From Catajapyx aquilonaris (Eukaryota), in NCBI GenBank assembly GCA_000934665.2, contig KZ538551.1:186001-242656 (forward strand): 56,656 nucleotides of DNA, in the 5' to 3' direction. Below are positions 2,784 to 56,480 of the stretch, in pieces. The notes under the pieces are model-generated. The model was not told the origin of the DNA. It worked only from the letters and a program-made list of their open reading frames with translations, and did no database searches. How positions within the stretch are numbered: position 1 is the stretch's first letter; each line of letters starts with the position of its first letter. Position numbers and translations under genes: made by a program.

Positions 2784-5700
2784 TCACTGCGGATGTGGCA
2801 CCGTGCGAATGTAGTTTCTTCCTGAAGGCACCTCGTGGACCTTAACACCCTCGGGAAACAAAACCTTCGCCTCCTCATCGCTCACGGTTGGAAGAACCAT
2901 CACGTCGCAACCGGCCTGGAAAAGATTGTGTTAATTTTGTGCCTTTATTCGCTAGTGGCTACGAAAAAATACCTTCCAGTCAACAGGAGTTGCCACCTTC
3001 TTCGTGGCAGTCAGCTGAAGAGAATCGACAGCTCGGAGCAACTCACTGTAACGAGCAACACAGAGTGTGAACATGGGCATGTCTTAGCATCCATATTTTG
3101 ATGGAAACTCACTCAAAGTTTCTCCCGGTGGTCGCTGGGTAGAGGATTGACAGCTTGAGCTTCTTGTCCGGACCAATGACAAATACGGAGCGACAGGTCA
3201 TGGGTAATCCCTGCGCGTCTTTCTCCTCGGGGTCAAGCATGCCCAGCTTCACGGCAAGGTCACGGCTCTGGTCATCGATGATCGGGAAGGGAAACTCACC
3301 CTTCAAGCAGCCGAAGGCCTGGACATCCTGGAGAAATATGGAAAATTAGTGCAAATATCCTGACCATGCCCAAGTATAATAATGGTTCACCTCTCCGACC
3401 TTGAATTTGGTAGCCTCATTATGCAAAGACCCTTCAAGGATATTGGAAGCATTCCATAAGTACAAATTTTTTTGAATATTGTGCAATAGCAAAGTCACCT
3501 TTCCCCACTTCATATAGGTATTATTAGGGGCTTGTACCCTACAAAAATAGTTGGCAGCTTCAATGGCAAAATCGGCCACATCCTAATCAGCACGATCAAT
3601 TTAACAAGGTCAATTGAAGCGATAGAAGGGTTCTCTTATCGAAAAAAATAACTGCAACAGACTTTATCTATGTCGCCCACACTCTTTCTGATAAATGCTC
3701 GAATTATCAAGTCGCCATAAAGTACCTTAATCCAACCCTTATGGCAGTCAACATCATTGCACGACAGGGCGATGACTTTAACCCCTCGTTTCTCAAATTC
3801 CGGGGCCAGCTGGGCCATGCGGCTCAACTCGGTGGTGCAAACAGGGGTGTAGTCCGCCGGGTGAGAAAACAGCATGCCCCATCTGCGGAAAAAGAAACAT
3901 TTGTAATAGGCCTACATACGCCGTAAATAGTACAAACAAGTCCTTACGCAGTGAAATTGCAGCCGTCATTACAGGTCATAAACGCAATCACTTACTGAGA
4001 ACAATAGTTTACGACAATACGATGAGACTATTTTTAGCAACGGTGCATTGTACTTCCACATATGAGAATAAGGATGCAATTTGCACAGTACCAGGCTCTG
4101 CCATTGACTGTTTTTAGAAACTTCAGATAATGCAAAAGTTGTCCGCCGGTGGACTGGTTTTGGCGAATAACACATCAGACGTGCCTTGGTAAAATTCCTG
4201 TTTTCCATCTAACTCGGCTGATGATACCTTGCAAAGAGCCTGATGCAATGACAGCATACTGTACATATTTGATGTTGTACTGGCAACTTGCACATGAAAA
4301 TACAACCAGCTTTGCATGAAAATGCCTTGCTAATAATGCCTCCCAACAACCATCCTCGTAAAGCATCAGAAATGGACAGCTTTGCATTGCAAATGGGTCG
4401 TTATTCAGCCACTTGCATGCTTCATTATACTATAAGGAAACGCCACACATTTCCTCATCTGACTTGTCATTTTCCTTCCCTCTTAATCGCTCTTAATGAG
4501 TCCCACACATGTACTGTACACTCACTTTTCTCCGAGCCACGAATGAAACGAGATGTGTCCATCAGACGTGTCAGCTTCAAAGTCTGGGAAGGCATCTCCG
4601 AGCCTCATCTTCACGAAATATGCTCTCACCGAATGCAAGAAGCGAAATGCAAATGTGAAACCGCACCCGCCGCACAATTATTATAACCAGTCAAGTAGGT
4701 CAAGATTGAACTGCAATCACTTACTCCCTACGAGAGAAAGTTGACCTACATGACCAACCGGTTATTCAAAAAAAAATATGTGCAGCAAAATAATTATGAA
4801 TGAAACTTTCCGCCAACTTATCAAATTACTTGCATAATAACTTATCAATCGCAAATGCTGACCTTACAAATTAACTGCATCGGAAGCTGAGCGTCCGGTC
4901 AGAGTTTATCATCCTTAGCATTGAACTGTACAATGGCGATTGATATGTTGCACATTTTCCAAATTGCATAAAAATTAGCACATTTGTCTGCAGACAAAAA
5001 TTATCTGACCTGTCTCCAAGCCACTCGTGGTACTCGATATGGCCCTCGGAAGTGTCCGCCTCGAAATTAGGAAACGCGTCTCCCAGCCTCATGTTGTAAC
5101 AGCGTATCAAACGTTAACTCAGCAGCACCAGCAATAATATTGGCCTAACGTACCCTGCTACACACCCTTCTTATAAGGAAAGTCTTACGGAAGTGTTCAA
5201 ATGGGTCAAGTATGTCCTCTTAACATACGGAGGTCAATCGAGTCATACAGCCTTTCAATAATTACGAGGTGAAGCAGGATGATTTGTCAAGGGTAATAGC
5301 AAACAGGGCCATTGATTTCATAATTATATACGCAAGTGCCATTGAGAATATATCATATCGGTAGTCTAATTGCGCAACAAGCGCAGAGGATTGATGGGAA
5401 CAATTAACTTTTCTAATTTCCTATTGATTTAATTGAACAATTGTTGTACTACAATTAAAACACTTCCGATACACAAAAAGTACGTTCTTTAATTAATCCC
5501 CATTTTAATACAAAATTAAAATACGAGTGCATCGTACAAAATTGAAAGGAGCATATGTACGAAGCAATTATCTTTTATTTTTGCATCATCTTCTGGCTAA
5601 TTACTTCGAGGCACATTGCGCTTGTAATTATTATTTTTAAATTACATTACAGGCACACTATACAGAATATGAAACTTTTTTTTTTTTTTTGTCAACATGT

Positions 5701-6012
5701 CAGTATACGGTTGGCAACACTGTTAGAACCGAACCGGTTCTGGCCCCGGTTCGGTTCCCCAGCATGTGAACGGTCATCACCTGTCCCCCCCATTCAATGT
5801 GATGTATAACCACCTTTTTTTTTTTTTGTCACCATCTGTCAGTATAATATGCTCTTTCCGGTGGTTCTATGATTGTAAAGCCGAACCGGTTCTGGACCAG
5901 GTCCAGTTCGGGTGTGGGGTCCTCCTCACCTGTCCCCGAGCCACTCGTGGAACTTGATGTGTCCTCCCGAGGTGTCTGCCTCGAAGTTTGGGAATAAATC
6001 GCCGAGCTTCAT
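2784..6012 (-). CDS. Prdx6: 1-Cys peroxiredoxin (peroxiredoxin-6) with three alternative first coding exons
   Basis: Shared exons 3882-3726, 3327-3113, 3045-2973 and 2915-2784 (TGA), all GT-AG with consistent phases. They encode [18 protein letters not shown] (peroxidatic Cys), [21 protein letters not shown] and VATPVDWK. First exon is one of 6012-5930, 5092-5010 or 4608-4526. AATAAA on - strand near 2526-2531. Confidence 0.96.
4526..4608 (-). CDS. Prdx6: Prdx6 alternative first exon A ([28 protein letters not shown])
   Basis: 83 nt from ATG to phase-2 donor AA|GTGAGT; TATAA about 75 nt upstream (4680-4686). Not in the ORF track. Confidence 0.9.
5010..5092 (-). CDS. Prdx6: Prdx6 alternative first exon B ([28 protein letters not shown])
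   Basis: 83 nt from ATG to phase-2 donor AG|GTCAGA; TTATAA at 5171-5176. Confidence 0.9.
5930..6012 (-). CDS. Prdx6: Prdx6 alternative first exon C ([28 protein letters not shown])
   Basis: 83 nt from ATG to phase-2 donor AG|GTGAGG; TATAAAA on - strand at about 6086-6093. Confidence 0.9.
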
Positions 6013-6327
6013 CCTTATTGTTGCGACGTTGGTTCGACCGTGACAATCTTTCAGGACAAACAATCGAAAAGACGGGCCGGCGTGGTTTTTATACCCCCCG
6101 GAGAGTGCTGCCATCTGGCGGCAGAGGTGCGGAACCATATGCGACGCACCTGGAAACAAACGACGATCGGATATACGTATGCGGAGAAAAGGCACGCTGA
6201 TTTTGGCTTGGATGCGACGATTCCAGCCAATCTGAATGGTCACGTGACAGTGGATGCTCCGCCTGCTGCCAATTTCAGAGTGCCTTTTCAATGTCCGCGG
6301 CTTCAAACGTATGAAGGGAAAACAAAC
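6013..6327. promoter_or_regulatory. Bidirectional Prdx6-C / PTPA promoter
   Basis: 315 nt between divergent ATGs. Contains a TATA box (-), a CTCF-like GCCGCCAGATGGCAGCA (- strand, 6106-6122), CCAAT near 6227, the palindromic E-box GTCACGTGAC (6239-6248) and a YY1-like AACATGGC overlapping the PTPA ATG. Confidence 0.7.
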
Positions 6328-8562
6328 ATGGCCGCTTCTGGTGAGGAAACCTTTTTTTTTCTTGAGATTTTGTGGTCCTCGCAGCATCCCTGGGAATGGT
6401 TTTTATGGAGGCCGCGGGTTGGGCAGGGAGTGCGGGTTGGGCTGAACCCAAATCCGAAGTCGGTATGCCTGCAGGGGGCTGTACAATCCAGCTCGAACCA
6501 CCCAAGTCTGTCACTTTGAAAGGTTGCACTGTGAATAGTTGAAGAATATTATTAAGAACGCAATGAAAGCAGGATGCCGACCGAAAACATGAACCAGCCG
6601 ACTGGAAGCCAACCCGTATTAAATTGTCATGTCGTATGATTGAACTGTGGATGACAATTAAAACATGCTGCTGGTCACGCTTTATGCGAGTTGATTGTAA
6701 TTAATTATGGAATTTAATTTCAGGATTGTGCCCTTGTGGAGTGCGGGATGACCACAAGTACATCGTTCCGGTCAAGGAGGTCAAGTCCATGGGTGACCTT
6801 GAGAAATGGGAGAAGTCTGAAGCTTACCAGGTTCGGTATAGTTTGCCGTCATGCACATCGCAAAGTTGACATTAATTTTTTAAACCAGGAATATGTGGGG
6901 TTCATCCTGGCCATGAACGAGGCTGTGAGGAGCAAGCCCATCTCGTACCCTGCGACACACAGCGAGGGAATATCTGCTGTGTTGAGCGTATTGGACCAAC
7001 TAAGCGATTGGGTCGATGAAATACCGCCGATTGAGCAGCCGCAGCGGTTTGGAAACAAAGCCTTTCGCACCTGGTACGATCGCCTGGAAGACGTAAGTTG
7101 TGTCGGTTAATTCTGATCCAGCAGGCCGAATTAAATCGCATCATTTTCCAGGGTGCTGCTTCTCTATTGAAGAAGTCATTCCCGCCTACCTTGCATCAGT
7201 CCATCCAGGAAGTTTCGGTGTACTTGATCGAATCAATGGGCAATTCAACCCGGATTGACTATGGGACGGGCCATGAGATGAACTTCCTCATGTTCCTGGT
7301 CTGCCTCTTCAAGATAGGTCTTCTGAAGGAGGAGGACAAGGCCTCTGTTGTCACAAGGATCTTCCATAGGTACATGATTCTTGTCAGGAAGTTACAACTC
7401 ACATACCGGATGGAGCCTGCAGGCAGCCATGGAGTTTGGAGCCTCGATGACTACCAGTTCGTACCGTTCATCTGGGGAAGTTCGCAGCTAATCAGTACGT
7501 CTCACTCAATCTTCAATTAAGCATCGAAATGCCCAAATTTCTTATTCAAAATTACAAAGAGTAATGTGCTTAAGGCAATTTAATTGACAGTAATTGATAG
7601 TATACACCATGGCATCAGTGCAATTCGTATGTGTGCAGACTGTAAAATTTGAATGGCTTTCAGAAGTCTTTTTAAGAAACTTCTTATTGTCATGACTATT
7701 TTCAGTAGTTGCAACAATAAGGATTTTTTTTAACCGAAAAAGCACTGCCTACCCCATCCTTGGGACAATGCTGTAACGATTGTATTGTAATTATCAGCAC
7801 TAATTACACATTACTGACGGGTACCATGAAAACATTGCCACAGAGGTAAAACTCGTAAAAGGACTCAATTATTATTAATTGCAAAATTGTCAAATAGCAC
7901 CATGAAGTAGCCAGCAGCATATATAAATAAAATTATTACATCTTGGTAGGCTACATGTTAAAATTACTTGCAAATATCGTTTTAATACTCTTGTGCTTCA
8001 CTTTTATTGCAGCTCACCCTAGGATTGAACCCAAGTCTTTCTACCAAGAGAATGTGGTAAAAGAATTTGCACCGGAATATATGTTCCTTGGTTGCATTGA
8101 ATACATTCTAAAGGTTAGTTTGGCTATTCACATTCAAATAAAATGCAATTTTGAAACGTCATTGTTATAAATTGCGACAAATGGAGATTGATGTATGGGT
8201 CGAGCTGTTAATTGCGATTGATTGCATCTTGTGCAGGTGAAAAGTGGTCCATTCCATGAGCACTCGAATCAGCTGTGGAACATTAGTGGGCTCCCCACTT
8301 GGTCCAAAATCAACAACGGACTGATTAAGATGTACAAAGCTGAGGTCAGTTTTCTGCTCAGTTACATTGCTGTTACGACAATATCTAATGTGCAATTTTT
8401 TTAAACTTGCCGCAGGTCTTGGCGAAGCTTCCAGTGATCCAGCACACTTATTTTGGGTCCCTGCTGCCGTTCCGTCCTGGAATGAGGCAGCCGACATTCC
8501 AAGGGGGTCGTATGCCACCTCCGCCTTTCCCCACTGCCAACGCAGCCTCGCCTGCACACTAA
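6328..8562 (+). CDS. PTPA: Serine/threonine-protein phosphatase 2A activator (PTPA/PPP2R4)
   Basis: Exons 6328-6340, 6724-6830, 6889-7092, 7152-7494, 8013-8113, 8237-8344 and 8416-8562 (TAA), GT-AG and in phase. Hallmark motifs [50 protein letters not shown] and [15 protein letters not shown]. Confidence 0.96.
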
Positions 8563-35713: not shown

Positions 35714-36025
35714 ATGTTCGACATATCGACAATAATTTTAACGATACGAAATATCGACCTGATGTTCGATATATCGACAATAATTTTACAGATACGAAAT
35801 ATCGACCTGATGTTCGATATATCGAAAATAATTTTAACGATACGAAATATCGACCTGCTGTTCGATATATCGAAAATAATTTTAACGATACGAAATATCG
35901 ACCTGCTGTTCGATATATCGAAAATAATTTTACAGATACGAAACATCGACCTGATGTTCGATATATCGAAAATAATTTTAACGATACGAAATATCGACCT
36001 GATATTCGATACATCGAAATATCGT
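35714..36025. repeat. 48-bp minisatellite, about 6 copies, preceded by a degenerate TCGATAT-rich tract (35130-35713)
   Basis: Unit GTTCGATATATCGAAAATAATTTTAACGATACGAAATATCGACCTGAT; explains the 16-aa periodic ORFs on both strands. Confidence 0.92.
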
Positions 36026-41069: not shown

Positions 41070-41450
41070 GGGTTACTTATAGGCTCGGTCCCTATCTGAC
41101 GTCATACTCCACTTATCGACCAATCACGGACGCCGGCCTTCGAGTAGGGGAGGAGGTGGGGGGGNNNNNNNNNNNNNNNNNNNNNNNNNNNNNNNNNNNN
41201 NNNNNNNNNNNAAAAAAACGGCGGCAGGACACTGCTGCCATCTGTCGGCCGGAGATTGCGCGATGGATTCCGGCCGTTAGTGGCCACCCGGCATAAGGGC
41301 CAAAATGAAGCTTGGATGAACGGCCAGTTGGCCCCTATGGCCCGGTGGCACCAAGGGCGAAAGTCCCGTGACGTCACAGAGAGAGAGAGAGAGAGGGGCA
41401 GGGAGGGTGGGTAGAGGGAGAGCCTGCGTTCCGGATGACGTAACACATCC
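41070..41450 (-). promoter_or_regulatory. IER proximal promoter
   Basis: TATA-like CTATAAG (-) at 41076-41082, CRE TGACGTCA at 41097-41104 and 41369-41376, CCAAT near 41120, TGACGTAA near 41436, and a CTCF-like CCGACAGATGGCAGCAG (-) near 41232-41250. An N-gap at 41165-41211 interrupts it. Confidence 0.75.
41165..41211. other. Assembly gap (N run)
   Basis: Run of n between poly-G and poly-A tracts. Confidence 0.99.
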
Positions 41451-41829: not shown

Positions 41830-42072
41830 GCAGTAATGAAAATGTTAGTAACTGGCAGTAATAATATTCATGTAGTATCTAGCAGTAATAATATTCCCAT
41901 TGTAACTGGCAGTAATAATATTCCTGTAGTATCTAGCAGTAATAATATTCCCATTGTAACTGGCAGTAATAATATTCGCATTGTAACTGGCAGTAGTAAT
42001 ATTCCCATCGTAACTGACAGTAATAATATTCCTGTAGTAACTGGCAGTAATAAAAATATTAGTAACTAGTAA
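41830..42072. repeat. 27-bp minisatellite, about 8 copies
   Basis: Unit TGTAACTGGCAGTAATAATATTCCCAT with variants; 9-aa periodicity in ORF 41836. Confidence 0.9.
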
Positions 42073-43798: not shown

Positions 43799-45284
43799 TT
43801 AGAACTCATCATGTTTCACTTTAGAAGTTTTGTCTGGAAAACTGAAAAATGCGGATGGCAGTCCGCGAGTGTCTCTTTCCCTTTTCACAAAAGCAGTGAA
43901 TGACGAGACGCAGTTGCCAACGAAATAGTTGGCTCGGCCCAAGATGGCCAGATCTAAATGCGGGTCGCTGCCTTCCACCTTATGCACAGAAGCTTCCATA
44001 CGAGCCAGTGCTTTTGTCAGCACCGGGATCATGTGGTCATGATCTGAAGCAACGAAAACTGACTTGGCTTTAGCTGTCTTAACGGCCCATTTCACCTTTT
44101 TAATAATGTCCGCTTCGGACGGAAGGCACAACCTGTGCGTTACCTTTCCATACTCATTATTGTAACCCAAGCACTGCGGTGATGCCATCAGATTTGGACT
44201 GTGTTTGACATGTTCGCAGGCACGGACCCAGTCTGGTCCACTCCTAATGTGGATCCCAACGAAGGCACCTTTTGGCAAAACATCGCGCACATACTCCTGC
44301 GCACGTGTTTCAATGTCCCAACTCCACATCAAATACTGCTGGAGATGCCGGTTCTCTTCTTGTATTGGAAAGCTGGCTGGCGCACCAACGAAAGCCAGAA
44401 CAGGCCACTTCTCTGGTGGGTACTGTGAAATCCACTTGTATGTAATCTCCGGGTTTTGGGTGTCGTAGGTCAGCGGGCCGTAAAACTCGGACGACACAAA
44501 ATCGATGGAAAATGTGTCCCAGAATGGACCAAAAGGATTGCCCTCCTTGGCGTTGCAGTCATCCGAGTCCCCGCGAGACATGTAGCAAAATGCTGAAACA
44601 GTTACATTTATTATAATCAATATAAATATTCATACAGCATCACTACTCACAAACACGCTTCTCAGGAGGCCACACTAGAGGGGCCAGTTCGGACATGAAA
44701 TCCTCCATTGTAACCACATGATGATACTCCTGCAAAGCTTCCACCTCAAAATATTTTTTGAACGGCACTTGAATCTGCAATGTAAGCCATTTTTTTATTT
44801 AAAATGTAATGTATTATACGGCATGCGACTCACAGATTTTGGCTGTTGATATCTGTACTCAACCCATGGTGGTAGAATCAGCGTCCTGTTCAGTGCCTTT
44901 GCAAATGCCAACGTTCCCAGGAAATGGTCTGCCTGGTTGCCAAAACGCCCTGGAACAAGTAGGAAATTGAAGCAAATCTTGCAAGATATTAATTATTATC
45001 TATAATGTATACACTGACTACACTGCAATTGACAAAATGCCAATACCCTTTTTGCAGTGTAATTGTCCACATCGTGAACGCCTAGCTGTATGTAAAAAAA
45101 CACATTACACTTCACGTAGCGGAATCTCACTTTACATGTCTTACGGATTCAACTTGTACGCTCCTGTTAATTTCATAAATGCAACTACCTTCATAATAAT
45201 AACAACAACAATAATAATGCGAGGATAACAAGCTTTTCCTCGTTATCTGCTGGCACCTCCTTCTTTTGGGAAATACCAAGATGG

Positions 45285-46796: not shown

Positions 46797-49700
46797 ATGA
46801 GGGCCACCCTCATGGTGCGTATGGTCTTGTTGTTGTACAGTTCACTCCCAACACTTGTGTGTGCTGCACAGCTGCGGGGGAATAAGTGTTTCCATAGTTA
46901 ATCAGCTGTGGGAGTTACATCGACTGACACGTTAACGTCCGGTAGGAGGGGAATTCACCTTTGAACACGCCTCGTTCCCTAAAACTCCACTGTTAAATTT
47001 TATATATTGCTGACATACTGTCCGTAGAACAAGGCTCATTTGCAAATGTTGTTTAATTTAGTTCATATTTTAATGCTATTGTTAATTACTGTCCTTAGAG
47101 GCTTCATATCTCATTTGCAAAAAGCTCAATATAATACGTATTTATCATTGCCATTATTCACGATCCTTAGAACATGTTTCATTGGGGAAAAAATACTGTT
47201 ACATTTAATTGATATTTATTGTTGCTATTAAAATTACTCTCCTTAAACCATGGCTCATTTGCATAGATTTTTAATTTAATTCATAATTTACATTGCTATT
47301 ACTATCCTTAAACCATGGCTCAATTGCAAATATAGTTTAATTTAACATTTTAAGCTATTGCTAATTATTATCCGTAAGAACATGGATCATCTGCATTTAA
47401 TTAAAAATTTATTGCTGCTGTTCATTACTATCATTAGAAAATGGGTCATTTGCAATATTTTAACATTTAACTAGCAGCGAAACCTGTTGCCATGACATGG
47501 CAACAGGTTTCGCTGCTAGTTAAATGTTAAAATATTGCAATTGGTTTCCATCTGGCAATGGATTAGCACATTGTGCTAATCCATTGCCAGATGGAAACCA
47601 GACCTGGACAAACAAACAAACTTACTTCATTGAATACTCATTACATACCCACACATTGGACAAACAAACAATCGCTGCCTTTTATACTTATTATATTAAT
47701 TACTATTGATTTGGGGTGGAATTGTCGTCTCACTCCTAGTTACTGCTAACTTAGCAGTAACCGTTACCAACACTGGTACTGCTAAGTCAGCAGTAACTAG
47801 CAGTGGGACGAAAATTCCACCCATTGTTAATAATTACTGTACTAGACATAATTTAAGTGGCAAAACTGCCGAGAGCTGTAACCGGATCTAATAGTGGTTA
47901 TAAATGTACAACAAGTTTTTTTCAACTTGGCCAAATGTATTATGTTCGACTTGCAGGTGAACCAACTTGGCGGGATGGCCAACAAGTACCTTCGCTTCAT
48001 GGCGAGTTCATCCTCGGAGAAGTCCGGTCAGCAGAACCTGCTGAAGCTTCCTGTGCCTCCGCTTGACAAGACGCTGTCGAAGTATCTGAGGTAGAGATGT
48101 GCGATCCATACCGGTTGACAGTTTGTAAGGTGTGCTGTTGCGTTTCCAGGTCAGTGAGGCCGCTTCTAAACGAGACGGAGTACCAGAAGACGGAGAGTGT
48201 GGTGAAGAAGTTTGGAGCTCCCGGCGGCATCGGGGAGAAGCTTCAGAAGCTGCTGGAAATGAGGGCGGATCATACCGAGAACTGGGTAAGGGTTTTGCAG
48301 CCAGAAGTGCACAGGACGATTGTAATGACTGATGTCGATTGCAGCTGTCGGACTGGTGGCTTCAAGTGGCTTACCTGGACTTCAGGTGGCCCGTGGTGGT
48401 TCACTCGAGCCCTGGGCTTGTGTTTCCGCTTGCAACCTTCTCTTCTGGGCCAGATGGGCAGGTCCCAAACGCAGCCAAGGTCATTGCCGGTGCCCTCGAC
48501 TACAAAATGATGCTGGACCAGTATGTTTATTGCATTGTTGTCTCTAAGTACAGTGCTGTAAATTCACGATTTGCTCTTCGCAGGAAGAAACTTCCCCTGG
48601 AGAAGATGGGTGGTCAGCCGGTGGACATGTCCCAGTATTACATGGTCCTGGGAACCTGTCGGGTTCCTGGAGTCAAGAGAGACAGTATCGCCTTCTACAG
48701 CAACCTGCCCATGCCACCAAGGCACATCGCTGTTGCACGGAACAACAACGTGAGTGTCATAATGTGTACGTCACACAGTGTAGCCAGGGTATGATTGAGA
48801 TTCAAACAGTTCTGTGTCCGCTGCAGTTCTTCAAAGTGGTCGTGATTGGCGACGATGGCTTGCCGTTCACCTCCAATCAAATCGAAGAGCAACTAAAGGA
48901 GGTCATGTCCCTATCCGAAACGCCTGGAACCCCCATCGGTATCCTCAGCACTGACAACCGCAACAATTGGGGCAACTCGTACAAAAAACTGCTCAAAGGT
49001 AAGTGCCAACATTTATGATCACGCAGCATGTCGTGCCAAATGTCTAACACTGCACTTCTTTCGCTTTATTTCGTTAAACTCGAGGAAGGACGAAGTGAGT
49101 TGACGACTCGCTGAGCAATACTGGTGCCTTCACTGAAAAGTATGAGTCCGCAATTATCAAAATTGAGACAATAATATTTTGGATTTTGACATGTTCTGTG
49201 GAGGTACCAGTGTCAGTGTTATTGCGTGTCGTTCCGGGATAATTCAGCTTGCACGTTTTCCTTTAGATCGCAGCAACTTTGCATCGTTGGAAGCGATCCA
49301 GAGCTCCCTGTTTCTGATGTCTCTGGACAAGCCAAATCCTGAATCGAAGGAACTGAATCGAGCGACAATCATAGCCTTGCAGATGGTGCACGGCTGGGGA
49401 AGCGAGTACAACTCTGCCAATCGCTGGTTCGACAAGACTATCCAGGTGAGCCGTTCGACTTGGCTTGCAAAGAGCTGTCTCTCTTAATGCGATTTACCAT
49501 TTCGCAGTTCATTGTCGGCACAGCGGGAGAGGTCGGATTGACCTACGAGCACAGCCCGGCCGAGGGGCCTCCAGTTGCTTTCCTCATGGACCACATCATC
49601 AGATGCAAGTGAGGGCAGAGTTAATCTCATTTCCTCGCATTGGTGTACAGCACTATTGTAAATTTTCACAGCGATGGGAAGCAGATGTGCAAGAGCTTTT

Positions 49701-50592
49701 CTAGCTCGAAGGTCCCTCATCCGGAGCTCCTGAAATTCAACACGAGCGATGTGACTGCCGAAATCGAGACGGCCAAGGAGAACCTCGCCAGGCTCATTGG
49801 CGACCTGGAAATGTCTTGCTTCACTCTCGAAAACTACGGAAGCAGCTTCATAAAGTCGCAGAAGATGAGTCCGGACAGCTACATACAGATGGCGATCCAG
49901 CTGGCCTTCTACAGGTCAGGGCATGCTTCCTTTAAGCATTGTGGGAATCGGAGCTTAGGTATCATTTACTGTTAGGATTCACGGCGAGCCTGGAGCTCAT
50001 TACGAGTCGGCATCCCTGCGCTTGTTCAGCCAGGGTCGGACCGAGACGATCCGATCGTGCTCGGTTGAATCTATTGAGTTCGCAAAGGGCATGCTGGACT
50101 CGGGAAGGAGCGACTCGGAGAAGGAAGCGCTGATGAGGAAGGCCGTGGAAGGACACAAGGAGTACACAAAGGGGGTTTGTATTCGCATTTTTTAAAAGTG
50201 GCTTTTCCGGATCTACTGTAGCGGATAAATTCCAGGCGGTGATGGGGCAGGCAGTGGATCGCCACCTGTTTGGCCTGAAGCTGATCGCCCAGGAGAACGG
50301 CCAGTCCATCCCGCCCTTCTTCCAGGATCCGTCCTACACCCGCAGCACCTCCTTCCGCATCTCCACCAGCCAGGTGGCCTCCGCCTTCGAGTCCGCCTTC
50401 ATGTGCTACGGTGCGCTGGTGCCGGATGGCTACGGCTGCTGCTACAACCCACGCCCGAAAGAGATTGTGTTTGGCGTTTCCGCCTTCAACTCGCATCCTG
50501 AAACCAGCTCCGTCACGTTCATGGAGGCCCTGAAGCAGAGCTTCATCGACATGCAGGACGTGCTGGCCAAGACCCAGAAGGCGAAGCTGTAG
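46797..50592 (+). CDS. CRAT: Carnitine O-acetyltransferase
   Basis: Exons 46797-46814 (probable), 47957-48090, 48150-48285, 48345-48520, 48584-48749, 48827-48998, 49267-49445, 49508-49608, 49672-49914, 49976-50174 and 50236-50592. Motifs LPVPPL, NWLSDWW, NRWFDK, catalytic EHSPAEG, SPDSYIQMAIQLA, GRTETIR, ISTSQ and DGYG. C-terminal PTS1 AKL. Confidence 0.95.
47015..47455. repeat. Degenerate ~60-70 bp AT-rich tandem repeat in CRAT intron
   Basis: Recurring CATGGCTCATTTGCA ... TTTAATTTAA ... GCTATT ... ATTACT.TCCTTA. Confidence 0.7.
47450..47600. repeat. Two abutting perfect palindromes (45-bp and 29-bp arms, 1-nt loops)
   Basis: Arms 47450-47494 / 47496-47540 and 47542-47570 / 47572-47600 are exact reverse complements. 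Confidence 0.95.
47713..47822. mobile_element. MITE family A copy in CRAT intron
   Basis: GGGGTGGAATTGTCGTCTCACT ... CAGTGGGACGAAAATTCCACCC. Confidence 0.85.
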
Positions 50593-52630: not shown

Positions 52631-53640
52631 TCACTCTTTGAAATGTTCAGCTGCTTCAGTAGGAGCCAACGGTATTTCACTCTGGATGTCCAATTCCCTG
52701 ATTCCATGCCTAGATTTGAAACGCATAAGCCAGCCGGTAGTTGCTTTAAAATTAGCGTTACCCCCTAGCTTCTTGTTAATTTCAAGAGCTTTTTCACAAA
52801 TCACAGGGCCACTTATTGGTTGTCCTTGGCTACGTGCCTGCATGAACCACGTGTAAACTGCAGTGTCTAAATCCTTGTTCTTCGCCATTTTCATCGTTTT
52901 TCTGTGCAAGTTTCCATTTTCACTGTTAAGTACACTCGCAAATTTTGTAATGTCATCACTGTTCTTTTTAATGTCCGATATTGTTGCATTTCCAACTCCA
53001 TATTCCCGAGCTAAGCTTGTTCCACTAGCACCATTCTTCAACTGGTCTATTATTTTAAGTTTATCGGAAACATTGAGAACAACTCGTTTACGTTTAGTTG
53101 CCTTTGCGAACGGAGCAACAACTACAGCACGATCTGTCACAAGCGAAGGCTCACACGCCACTGATGCTGCAAGGTTGGTCACGTAGGCCGGTTGGCAGGG
53201 ACGGGGAAAGCGCTGCAGCCCCACAGCATTAGCGGCTGCTAGCGGAACTACATGGCCCGCAAATTTCCATCGACCGCTTTTGGTTAACCGATGTTTTGGT
53301 TGATCAGTATTCGGATAATCGATGCTCTACAATAATAAACAGATCAATGCAATATCAAACTAGTGCAGTCATCAGCTGTACAAGTAATGAATAGAATGAA
53401 TAGATCATATTGGATATAATTATTTTGAGAAAGCAGCAATATAACCCTGACAATTTAATGAGTTCGTTAATTCACTCACGTCTTTTTCCACAGCTACTTG
53501 TCCTTCACTTATTAGGTCTTCAAGTTGAAATTCATTTTCACTAGTTGCTTTAGGGGCCAATGGCTCCAGCAGTGGGTCTTCTTCTAATCGTAACTCTTCC
53601 TGCACAAGATGTGTACTTGAAGATTTACTTGCCGTGTTAT
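52631..53640 (-). CDS. Spliced module: acidic linker exon (53640-53480) plus Tigger/pogo-derived CENP-B HTH exon (53326-52631)
   Basis: KRKRVVLNVSDKLKII ... LAREYGVGNATISDIKK (HTH_psq/CENP-B_N-like) and LDTAVYTWFMQARSQGQPISGPVICEKA ... FKATTGWLMRFKSRHGI (HTH_Tnp_Tc5/CENP-B). No DDE domain. Acceptors TTTCAG (53641) and TTGTAG (53327) and donor GTGAGT (53479) keep the frame. Confidence 0.8.
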
Positions 53641-55079: not shown

Positions 55080-56480
55080 CTAAGTTATCTCTCCACATTT
55101 TGAGCGTGAGTTACGTGAACTTTTCTGGTGCACTGTGCGCTTGTGACGCTGCACACCATAGGAGCGTGAAAATTTATCACCACACCCGTCGCATGAGTAC
55201 AATCTCAAACTCAGGTGAACAGCAGATACATGACGGTTCAATGACCCACTTGCAGCAAACTTCTGGTAGCAATATTTACATTCATGTGGTTTCTTGCCGA
55301 GGTGAACTGAATTGACGTGAACAGTCAAGTGACTCTTCTGAGAAAAGTCCCTATTGCAGTGACTGCAAGTGAACTGCTTATCGACAGTGTGAATTCTCAA
55401 ATGCCTGGTCAAGTGATTCTTTTCTCGAGACTTGTATGAGCACAATGGGCACTTAAACCAGCGACCTTTACTTCTGTATGTCTTTTTTGTATCTTTGATC
55501 CATTCTTCACCAGCCGCAGATTCATTACCTGATTGCATTTTCTCATCTTGCACATTATCTACTTTCCATTGCCCATAATTTCCTCTCCTGCTAGTCTTGC
55601 CTATTCCATTGTTTGGCTTCTCCATGCTATCATTCGCAGCATCCAAAATGCTTTCCTTCCAGTTCTCCTTTGGATGTTTAAAAAAAGCACAAAAATGTCA
55701 AAATTAATCACTAATCGCATTGCTTGAAATGCGTCCACACGAGCTACCTGTGTCTCAAAGTATTGGTCCTCTTCTTCTTCATGAACGATGGTTGTCTTAG
55801 GGAGAGACGGTCTCCCATCTGACGAGATGTCTTTCACAGCATCCAAATCACATAGTTCTTCATCCGGTGTCTCTTCCTTTACTTCAGCATGAAAACCGTC
55901 ACTCCCGATGTCATAGCCTATGGAAAATGTGACAGATACATTCACTAGGTCAAATTTCCTTCCACTCACTACCGGCAGCTTCCCCTGCGCGGCATCCAGC
56001 AGTGTTGGAATATTCCTCTCCCAAATCTCCCTCATCCTGAAAGAACAATGTGACTTTACTTGCAAAACCTACGTAAGTTATTTGTTGAAATGAAGCCTTT
56101 CCGCACTTACTTGCTTCTCGTATGCATCACGTCGTACATAATTTCCACCACACGCAGCTGCCAATGTGTCCAGTGGTTGGGAGTCTTCTGATTCCAATAA
56201 TTCTTCCTTCACGATGAGAGTACTTGATGACTCGCACGCCGCTTCACCTGAAAGTAATGGCAGTTGCATTATGATGATGATGATGATGATGATGATGATT
56301 ATCCAACCAACCTCCCACTTCTCCTCCCGACGTGTCGATAGCATCAATCTTCATCTCAATTCTCTTCATATTTGATTCAACCTTCCCCATCCTTCCCTCC
56401 AGTCTCTCCAACACTTCTCTGCAGCCGACCACCTCTTCCATCACCCTCCTCATCATCTGCTCCAGACCTCTTGCCTCCAT
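55080..56480 (-). CDS. C2H2 zinc-finger protein with N-terminal coiled-coil-like segment
   Basis: Exons 56480-56312, 56247-56111, 56036-55970, 55917-55748 and 55667-55080, phases consistent. The last exon has four C2H2 fingers (CPLC, CSHC, CKYC, CDGC). YY1-like AACATGGCCGC (-) near 56570-56580 suggests the TSS. Confidence 0.85.

Follow-up and report, generated by a model that had tools for sequence, protein, structure and literature searches.

Three tandem first coding exons suggest a small variable-first-exon Prdx6 locus in Catajapyx aquilonaris

Introduction

Can a single antioxidant gene be transcribed from three start regions, each with a first coding exon of its own, and if so, how did the copies arise? 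This question is raised by a peroxiredoxin-6 (Prdx6)-type gene of Catajapyx aquilonaris, which occupies positions 2784-6012 on the minus strand of a 56.7-kb stretch of contig KZ538551.1 (hereafter the window, meaning the whole stretch of DNA that was analyzed; all positions are those of the window). Tandem paralogous first exons, with a promoter before each and one constant set of exons behind them, are found in UGT1A, the clustered protocadherins and GCNT2. A preliminary description of the window had proposed such an architecture for this gene, namely three tandem cassettes of promoter plus first exon that feed one shared gene body, with the first exons under purifying selection. Here, we analyzed the exons, their upstream regions and their possible parallels, and we favor with moderate confidence the reading that the gene is a small variable-first-exon Prdx6 locus with three promoters. 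Every detail that the preliminary description had observed was reproduced. As far as the DNA sequence allows us to judge, the locus is real and probably functional, with three distinct start regions from which the gene could probably be activated.

Three first exons are in phase with one gene body

The three first exons, referred to as 1c (distal), 1b (middle) and 1a (proximal), are spaced 920 nt (1c to 1b) and 484 nt (1b to 1a) apart and precede four shared exons (Table 1). Each was recovered as an 83-nt exon that runs from an ATG to a GT donor, and the translations equal the peptides quoted in the preliminary description exactly. The acceptor of exon 2 (position 3882) is in phase with all three phase-2 donors, and each of the three joins produces an open frame of 219 amino acids (aa). 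A tblastn comparison of the three spliced products (word size 2, E up to 10) with all 56.7 kb of the window found three copies of exon 1 and one copy each of exons 2-5, with nothing further above noise. The claim of a single, shared gene body therefore holds, as a statement on this window only. An AATAAA signal lies at position 2531, 253 nt beyond exon 5, and the whole Prdx6 locus takes up approximately 3.5 kb.

The predicted product is a Prdx6-type 1-Cys peroxiredoxin

Exon 2 alone matched PF00578 (AhpC/TSA) with 55.9 bits (cut-off 26), and its translation contains the PVCTTE motif with the peroxidatic cysteine. Exon 3 scored 22.6 bits, under the cut-off when taken alone, on the C-terminal part of the same family. 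Exon 5 alone (43 aa) has no Pfam match; homologues that are up to 73% identical over exons 2-5 carry PF10417 (1-cysPrx_C). No Pfam match was obtained for the 27-aa peptides of exon 1, as expected at such a length. Among structures in the Protein Data Bank (PDB), the best peroxiredoxin match of exon 1c was PRDX6 2V2G; multi-copy recA constructs also scored, via weak repeated matches. The top PDB matches of exon 2 were yeast PRX1 (5YKJ), human PRDX6 (5B6M/1PRX), 7KUU (named alkyl hydroperoxide reductase C) and PRDX6 2V2G.

Named database matches are animal peroxiredoxin-6 or 1-Cys peroxiredoxin. The best identity was 85% for exon 2 (among the best 120 of 5836 matches, from 5839 candidates) and, for exon 3, 82% at 86-87% coverage and 79% at full coverage (among the best 120 of 4840 matches, from 5095 candidates). 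For the part encoded by exons 2-5, the best identity was 73% among database proteins of 190-300 aa, and close relatives were absent from the protein collection. The alignment of exon 1 and exon 2 and the PVCTTE motif are shared with canonical Prdx6 proteins (human PRDX6, 1PRX and 5B6M; Arenicola PRDX6, 2V2G; the shrimp protein PvPrx6), and decapod Prx6 proteins are likewise 219 aa long. Judged by its predicted protein, the gene product is a Prdx6-type 1-Cys peroxiredoxin.

Upon inspection of the exon junction, we noted that the choice of first exon sets one residue of particular interest. Ser32 of human PRDX6 is the phospholipase nucleophile in a GxSxG lipase motif. Residues 2-27 of exon 1 align to residues 6-31 of human PRDX6 and exon 2 opens with the counterpart of human W33, hence the intron-split codon 28 falls at the place of human Ser32. 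Exon 1a makes this residue Lys, whereas exon 1b or 1c makes it Arg. Unlike canonical mammalian PRDX6, every isoform thus lacks the GxSxG lipase serine, and the GxSxG/Ser32 signature of a bifunctional, mammalian-type PRDX6 was not found. Exons 1a, 1b and 1c all retain the His that corresponds to human H26. Among 119 distinct orthologue N-termini, the Ser32 place is held by S in 89, K in 17, G in 6 and T in 5, and Arg is outside the top four. A 2026 paper on Penaeus vannamei Prx6 (PMC13116241) cites the lipase role of Ser32 and gives Lys at this place in the shrimp protein.

The first exons have been kept as coding sequence

Pairwise, the three copies of exon 1 are identical at 58-62 of 83 nt and at 20-22 of 27 residues, with no stops or indels among them. 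Their differences are concentrated at third codon positions (first/second/third positions: 3/3/18 for 1a-1b, 4/5/12 for 1a-1c and 2/4/15 for 1b-1c), in line with the closely related peptides and many third-position differences of the preliminary description. By Nei-Gojobori counts with the start codon excluded, pS/pN was 0.97/0.13 for 1a-1b, 0.62/0.18 for 1a-1c and 0.95/0.10 for 1b-1c, and pS exceeded pN in Fisher tests for all three pairs (p = 4.3e-11, 8.4e-4 and 1.8e-10, respectively). The ratio dN/dS was 0.15 where dS was correctable; the proposed purifying selection thus passed the pairwise dN/dS check, pN of 0.10-0.18 against pS of 0.62-0.97 being not near a ratio of 1. When the observed changes were placed at random, the protein identity was matched without a stop in 0, 1 and 0 of 20,000 trials for the three pairs.

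The DNA around the exons gave a different picture. Over 300 nt upstream and 300 nt downstream, local alignment scores were no higher than those of shuffled sequences (z from -1.2 to 0.4), which agrees with the earlier remark that the flanks are little alike, and in sensitive blastn between cassettes the similarity ended within a few bases of the exon borders. Within the exons, the sites that differ among the copies coincide with the sites that vary among orthologue N-termini: mean column entropy was 1.87 at the 9 varied sites versus 1.07 at the 18 unvaried ones (Mann-Whitney p = 0.024), in the set of 119 N-termini, of which four alignment positions were fixed by the selection filter and so are invariant by construction. 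A hand count of lineage-specific replacements gave 4-6 of 28 for 1a, 1-3 for 1b and 2-4 for 1c.

Collectively, synonymous sites are saturated, non-synonymous sites conserved and flanks randomized, which indicates that each copy was maintained as coding sequence through most of the period that followed duplication. On these comparisons, long-term purifying selection on all three first exons is clear. Recent gene conversion is an unlikely source of the likeness between the exons, again because the synonymous sites are saturated.

Every first exon has a TATA-like box before it

The TATA-like box that the preliminary description had seen before each first exon was found as TATAA at -77, -83 and -81 from the ATG of 1a, 1b and 1c. 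As a background, the window has 1099 ATGs on the minus strand, of which 23 (2.1%) are preceded by TATAA between -86 and -74; on the plus strand, the figure is 13 of 1048 (1.2%). All three copies have A at -3, and the leaders from TATA box to start codon are free of ATG. The donors of the first exons match CAG/GTAAGT at 6, 7 and 7 of nine positions, compared with 6, 5 and 6 for the three constitutive donors of the gene, to which they are thus equal or superior; that of exon 1b, with C at +3, is the least canonical of the three first-exon donors.

The upstream regions differ in composition and motifs. G+C content (over 300 nt for 1c) is 53% upstream of 1c versus 39-41% upstream of 1a and 1b. A motif scan that extended 400 nt upstream from each start codon found GCGTG/CACGC matches to the core of the xenobiotic response element (XRE), an E-box and two CCAAT boxes in inverted orientation upstream of 1c only, CCAAT upstream of 1b only, and one TTCnnGAA upstream of 1a only.

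Origin of the cassettes

The copies are more alike among themselves (20-23 of 28 residues) than any is to the 197 orthologue N-termini with which they were compared (best 18, 19 and 21 of 28), and the peptide of exon 1c is the most orthologue-like of the three. They also have in common two states that are rare elsewhere, namely His at position 18 (1% of orthologues) and a start one residue shorter (2%). Since the copies are mutually closest and share these rare states, the duplications arose within this lineage. The best explanation of the sequence data is that the promoter and first coding exon were duplicated twice in tandem, long ago, in the lineage of Catajapyx. To judge by how far apart the copies lie (484 and 920 nt), the unit that was duplicated may have measured roughly 0.5 kb.

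Between 1c and 1b, we also noted two copies (82% identity) of a 34-nt palindrome-bearing element, 152 nt apart at 5724-5757 and 5876-5909. Each is followed by an A-run, and the element looks like a small repeated or mobile one that enlarged the 1c-1b interval.

A proposed working of the locus

The three first exons were kept as coding sequence, encode only 27 residues each and have no second gene body to join, hence they must reach exon 2. In the reading that we favor, each cassette (1c, 1b or 1a) would start its own transcript approximately 30 nt past its TATA-like box, and the sole donor of the active first exon would be spliced to exon 2 at its one acceptor. Any cassette that lies downstream of the start in use would be removed within intron 1, because it lacks an acceptor of its own. 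Three 219-aa products would result, with a common catalytic body and with differences at 5-8 of 28 N-terminal residues. The distal start would be G+C-richer and lie in a region in common with the neighboring gene for PTPA (the PP2A phosphatase activator); the two downstream starts would be A+T-richer and TATA-driven.

Several points weigh against this reading. The range from -86 to -74 for TATAA was picked post hoc, and the strict form TATAWA is present at 1c only (1a has TATAAT and 1b TATAAG). C at donor position +3 is uncommon, which counts against the donor of 1b. In the 400-nt upstream regions, none of the motifs scanned for (the antioxidant response element (ARE), heat-shock element (HSE), E-box, XRE, DRE and CCAAT) is common to all three cassettes. 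An AG with a pyrimidine-rich run (at least 70%) lies at -119 of 1a and at -137 and -102 of 1c, making use as internal exons behind a further leader exon conceivable. Moreover, the pairwise selection tests reflect most of the time since duplication and are blind to the recent death of one copy. The protein differences are small (5-8 of 28), with no evident functional reason for three variants. Lastly, the same signature was seen in one pair only among 204 Prdx6-type proteins (described below), and the design is not general to the Prdx6 family.

Alternative explanations

The array might be partly a relic: all three copies were long in use, one or two are transcribed and spliced today, and the rest have been silenced recently and are still undamaged. 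Pairwise dN/dS is unable to date such a recent loss of constraint. The candidates for loss would be 1a, which has the most lineage-specific replacements (4-6 of 28), and 1b, with its least canonical donor (GTCAGA), neither of them having a strict TATAWA. Set against this, the replacements in 1a fall at positions that are variable among orthologues (D/N at 9, S/E at 23, E/D at 27, K at 28), and the ATG, frame, exact length, GT donor, A at -3 and ATG-free leader are kept in all three copies, none of which has a defect that we could see. We regard a partly relic array as rather unlikely.

Alternatively, transcription might start from a single promoter upstream of 1c, in the region in common with PTPA, or from a non-coding leader exon, the choice among 1c, 1b and 1a being made by splicing. 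Two routes are conceivable: alternative use of the donors of 1c, 1b or 1a, as in the 'type II' transcripts of sDscam, or use of weak acceptors upstream of the copies. There is a precedent for the first in chelicerate sDscam, where, according to a published report (PMC4835542), downstream variable exons are also spliced to the constant exon from transcripts that started upstream; the second could draw on the candidate AG sites mentioned above, one before 1a (-119) and two before 1c (-137 and -102), whose runs are at least 70% pyrimidine. However, use of the 1b or 1a donor would leave the ATG of 1c first on the transcript. The unspliced 1c frame stops one codon past its donor (AGG TGA), and a 29-codon upstream open reading frame (uORF) would stand ahead of the real start, an unfavorable arrangement for protein synthesis. 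Exon 1b has no candidate acceptor within 150 nt upstream, and those of 1a and 1c all lie upstream of their TATAA boxes, so that the matching distances from TATAA to ATG would be a coincidence. Owing to the uORF, we rate a single promoter, with either splicing route, as improbable.

An artefact or chance, be it three gene copies collapsed in the assembly, haplotypes left uncollapsed or frames that are open by accident, is highly improbable. It has no positive support; the three N stretches of the window (28542, 41165-41211 and 54581) are nowhere near the Prdx6 locus. Unlike collapsed copies or haplotypes, the exons have 21-25 differences in 83 nt, and the DNA in which they are set, at distances of 484 and 920 nt, is unique and cannot be aligned from one copy to the next. 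In addition, their protein likeness has a chance probability of at most 5e-5 per pair, and within the window tblastn between copies gave E values from 1e-10 to 1e-13.

Returning to the three-promoter reading, an active promoter for each cassette can reasonably be inferred from the matching distances between TATAA and ATG, the context of the start codon, the absence of acceptors that convince and the uORF that would burden any single-promoter model. We further infer that all three cassettes are in present-day use and are regulated differently.

Parallels in other genes and species

Catajapyx Prdx6 would have the same layout as UGT1A, the clustered protocadherins and GCNT2, in that the donor of a first exon is joined to constant exons. 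Of the architecture put forward in the preliminary description, the three paralogous first exons, the shared body and the in-phase acceptor stood; the likeness to UGT1A and protocadherin is one of layout only, and the three promoters are predicted from sequence. In UGT1A or protocadherin, an entire domain for substrate binding or adhesion, hundreds of residues long, comes from the variable exon, whereas in Catajapyx this exon encodes 27 residues with conservative changes. Array size differs too, with about 9-50 members in the vertebrate clusters and three here. As the variable part of the Catajapyx protein is limited to 27 residues of one fold, regulatory diversity is a likelier point of the arrangement than protein diversity. 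The main gain is probably separate transcriptional control; fine-tuning of the N-terminal hairpin is a secondary possibility.

An arthropod parallel outside the peroxiredoxins is provided by the sDscam genes of chelicerates. A 2016 report (PMC4835542) summarizes the layout of the clustered protocadherins and describes tandem 5' cassettes of sDscam, each with a promoter whose activity was seen with reporter constructs. The sDscam genes and Catajapyx Prdx6 have in common tandemly duplicated 5' cassettes that are joined, or in Catajapyx would be joined, to constant exons. By contrast, sDscam belongs to another gene family, and its many cassettes have 2-4 exons and encode Ig domains; its downstream cassettes are, according to that report, also spliced from transcripts that started upstream, which in Catajapyx would be hampered by the upstream ATG of 1c.

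We also surveyed Prdx6 isoforms among the members of 20 protein clusters. Among 204 full-length Prdx6-type proteins, 25 pairs had bodies at most 2 residues apart; 17 of them differ at one N-terminal residue and 7 in the length of the N-terminus. The remaining pair has an identical body and equal-length N-termini with 3 differences. These are the peroxiredoxin-6-like isoforms X1 (XP_055940042.1) and X2 (XP_055940043.1) of the spider Argiope bruennichi, which are 220 aa each, identical from residue 30 and different at 3 of the first 28 residues. They belong to the same enzyme family, their differences are confined to the segment that exon 1 encodes in Catajapyx, and the National Center for Biotechnology Information (NCBI) lists them as isoforms of one gene; going by the annotation name and the identical protein sequence, exons 2-5 would be shared in Argiope as well. 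Argiope has two variants with 3 differences, compared with three variants and 5-8 differences in Catajapyx. Because the Argiope variants are far more alike, their duplication is probably younger and independent.

A Prdx6 gene with several first coding exons was not found in the searchable literature (that is, outside subscription journals and bioRxiv supplements), and to that extent the earlier statement that the arrangement was not described for Prdx6 stands. It does not extend to databases: the RefSeq isoforms X1 and X2 of Argiope bruennichi show that the same design is already modelled in public annotation, and it is not unique to Catajapyx.

Other candidates were rejected. In the 'isoform' pairs of Macrosteles, Ornithodoros, Ischnura and Xenia, the difference does not lie in homologous first exons: it consists of a short start without homology, an end that is truncated, or one form that is internal or longer. 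A sea-urchin protein (XP_011663577.1, Strongylocentrotus purpuratus, 334 aa) contains the exon-2 segment three times and was considered as a second case of exon duplication; its three segments are identical, hence it is most likely an assembly or gene-model artefact and not a real triplication.

Neighboring features of the window

The gene for PTPA lies head-to-head with Prdx6 (Table 1), its first PTPA-like open frame being approximately 0.7 kb away from the ATG of 1c (6012). A bidirectional promoter region with the E-box and the two inverted CCAAT boxes may serve both genes. Farther along the window, we noted a large exon of GDP-fucose protein O-fucosyltransferase 1 (43799-44629, minus strand), with best identities of 63-64% to branchiopod, hemipteran and decapod proteins, and several exons of a carnitine/choline acyltransferase (48067-50592, plus strand). 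The identities of the O-fucosyltransferase exon and of Prdx6 (at best 73% over exons 2-5) point to an arthropod, probably pancrustacean, lineage that lacks close relatives in the collections. An open frame at 52631-53326 (minus strand) has CENP-B N-terminal and Tc5 transposase helix-turn-helix (HTH) domains and looks like a pogo/Tc5-type remnant or a domesticated copy; a C2H2 zinc-finger exon at 55080-55697 (minus strand) adjoins it. Two minisatellites were also present, one at 35714-36019 (a 48-nt unit repeated 6.4 times with 93% matches, several frames being open on each strand) and one at 41846-42053 (27/54-nt units, 84-90% matches), with the N run at 41165-41211 nearby.

Table 1. Coordinates of the Prdx6 exons, the TATA-like boxes and the adjacent gene in the window.
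Feature	Coordinates	Strand	Remarks
Exon 1c (distal)	5930..6012	-	83 nt; ATG; 27 codons + 2 nt; donor CAG/GTGAGG
Exon 1b (middle)	5010..5092	-	83 nt; ATG; 27 codons + 2 nt; donor CAG/GTCAGA
Exon 1a (proximal)	4526..4608	-	83 nt; ATG; 27 codons + 2 nt; donor AAA/GTGAGT
Shared exon 2	3726..3882	-	157 nt; acceptor ttttccgcag/; codes for the active-site segment
Shared exon 3	3113..3327	-	215 nt
Shared exon 4	2973..3045	-	73 nt
Shared exon 5	2784..2915	-	132 nt including TGA stop
TATAA box of 1c, full form TATAAAAA	6089..6093	-	81 nt before ATG
TATAA box of 1b, TATAAG	5171..5175	-	83 nt before ATG; CCAAT at -51
TATAA box of 1a, TATAAT	4681..4685	-	77 nt before ATG
PTPA (PP2A phosphatase activator), first recognisable exons	6718..7520	+	head-to-head with the 1c promoter region

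Implications

Duplication of promoter and first exon might be recurrent in arthropod Prdx6, having occurred independently in the deep-branching pancrustacean lineage of Catajapyx, with three old cassettes, and among orb-weaving spiders, with two young ones; the cassettes would be deployed by tissue or stress and would tune the N-terminal hairpin, including the residue at the Ser32 place. One antioxidant gene would then act as a small gene family with its catalytic body unduplicated. We put this forward tentatively, as a conjecture that may well prove wrong. The isoforms concerned belong to a class that is merged by annotation pipelines and by protein clustering at 90% identity, and hence overlooked.

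Prdx6 is usually regarded as a single-promoter stress gene. If the three-promoter reading is true, regulatory subfunctionalization would have been reached in a compact way, by copying approximately 0.5 kb (promoter, leader and 27 codons) and not the whole gene.

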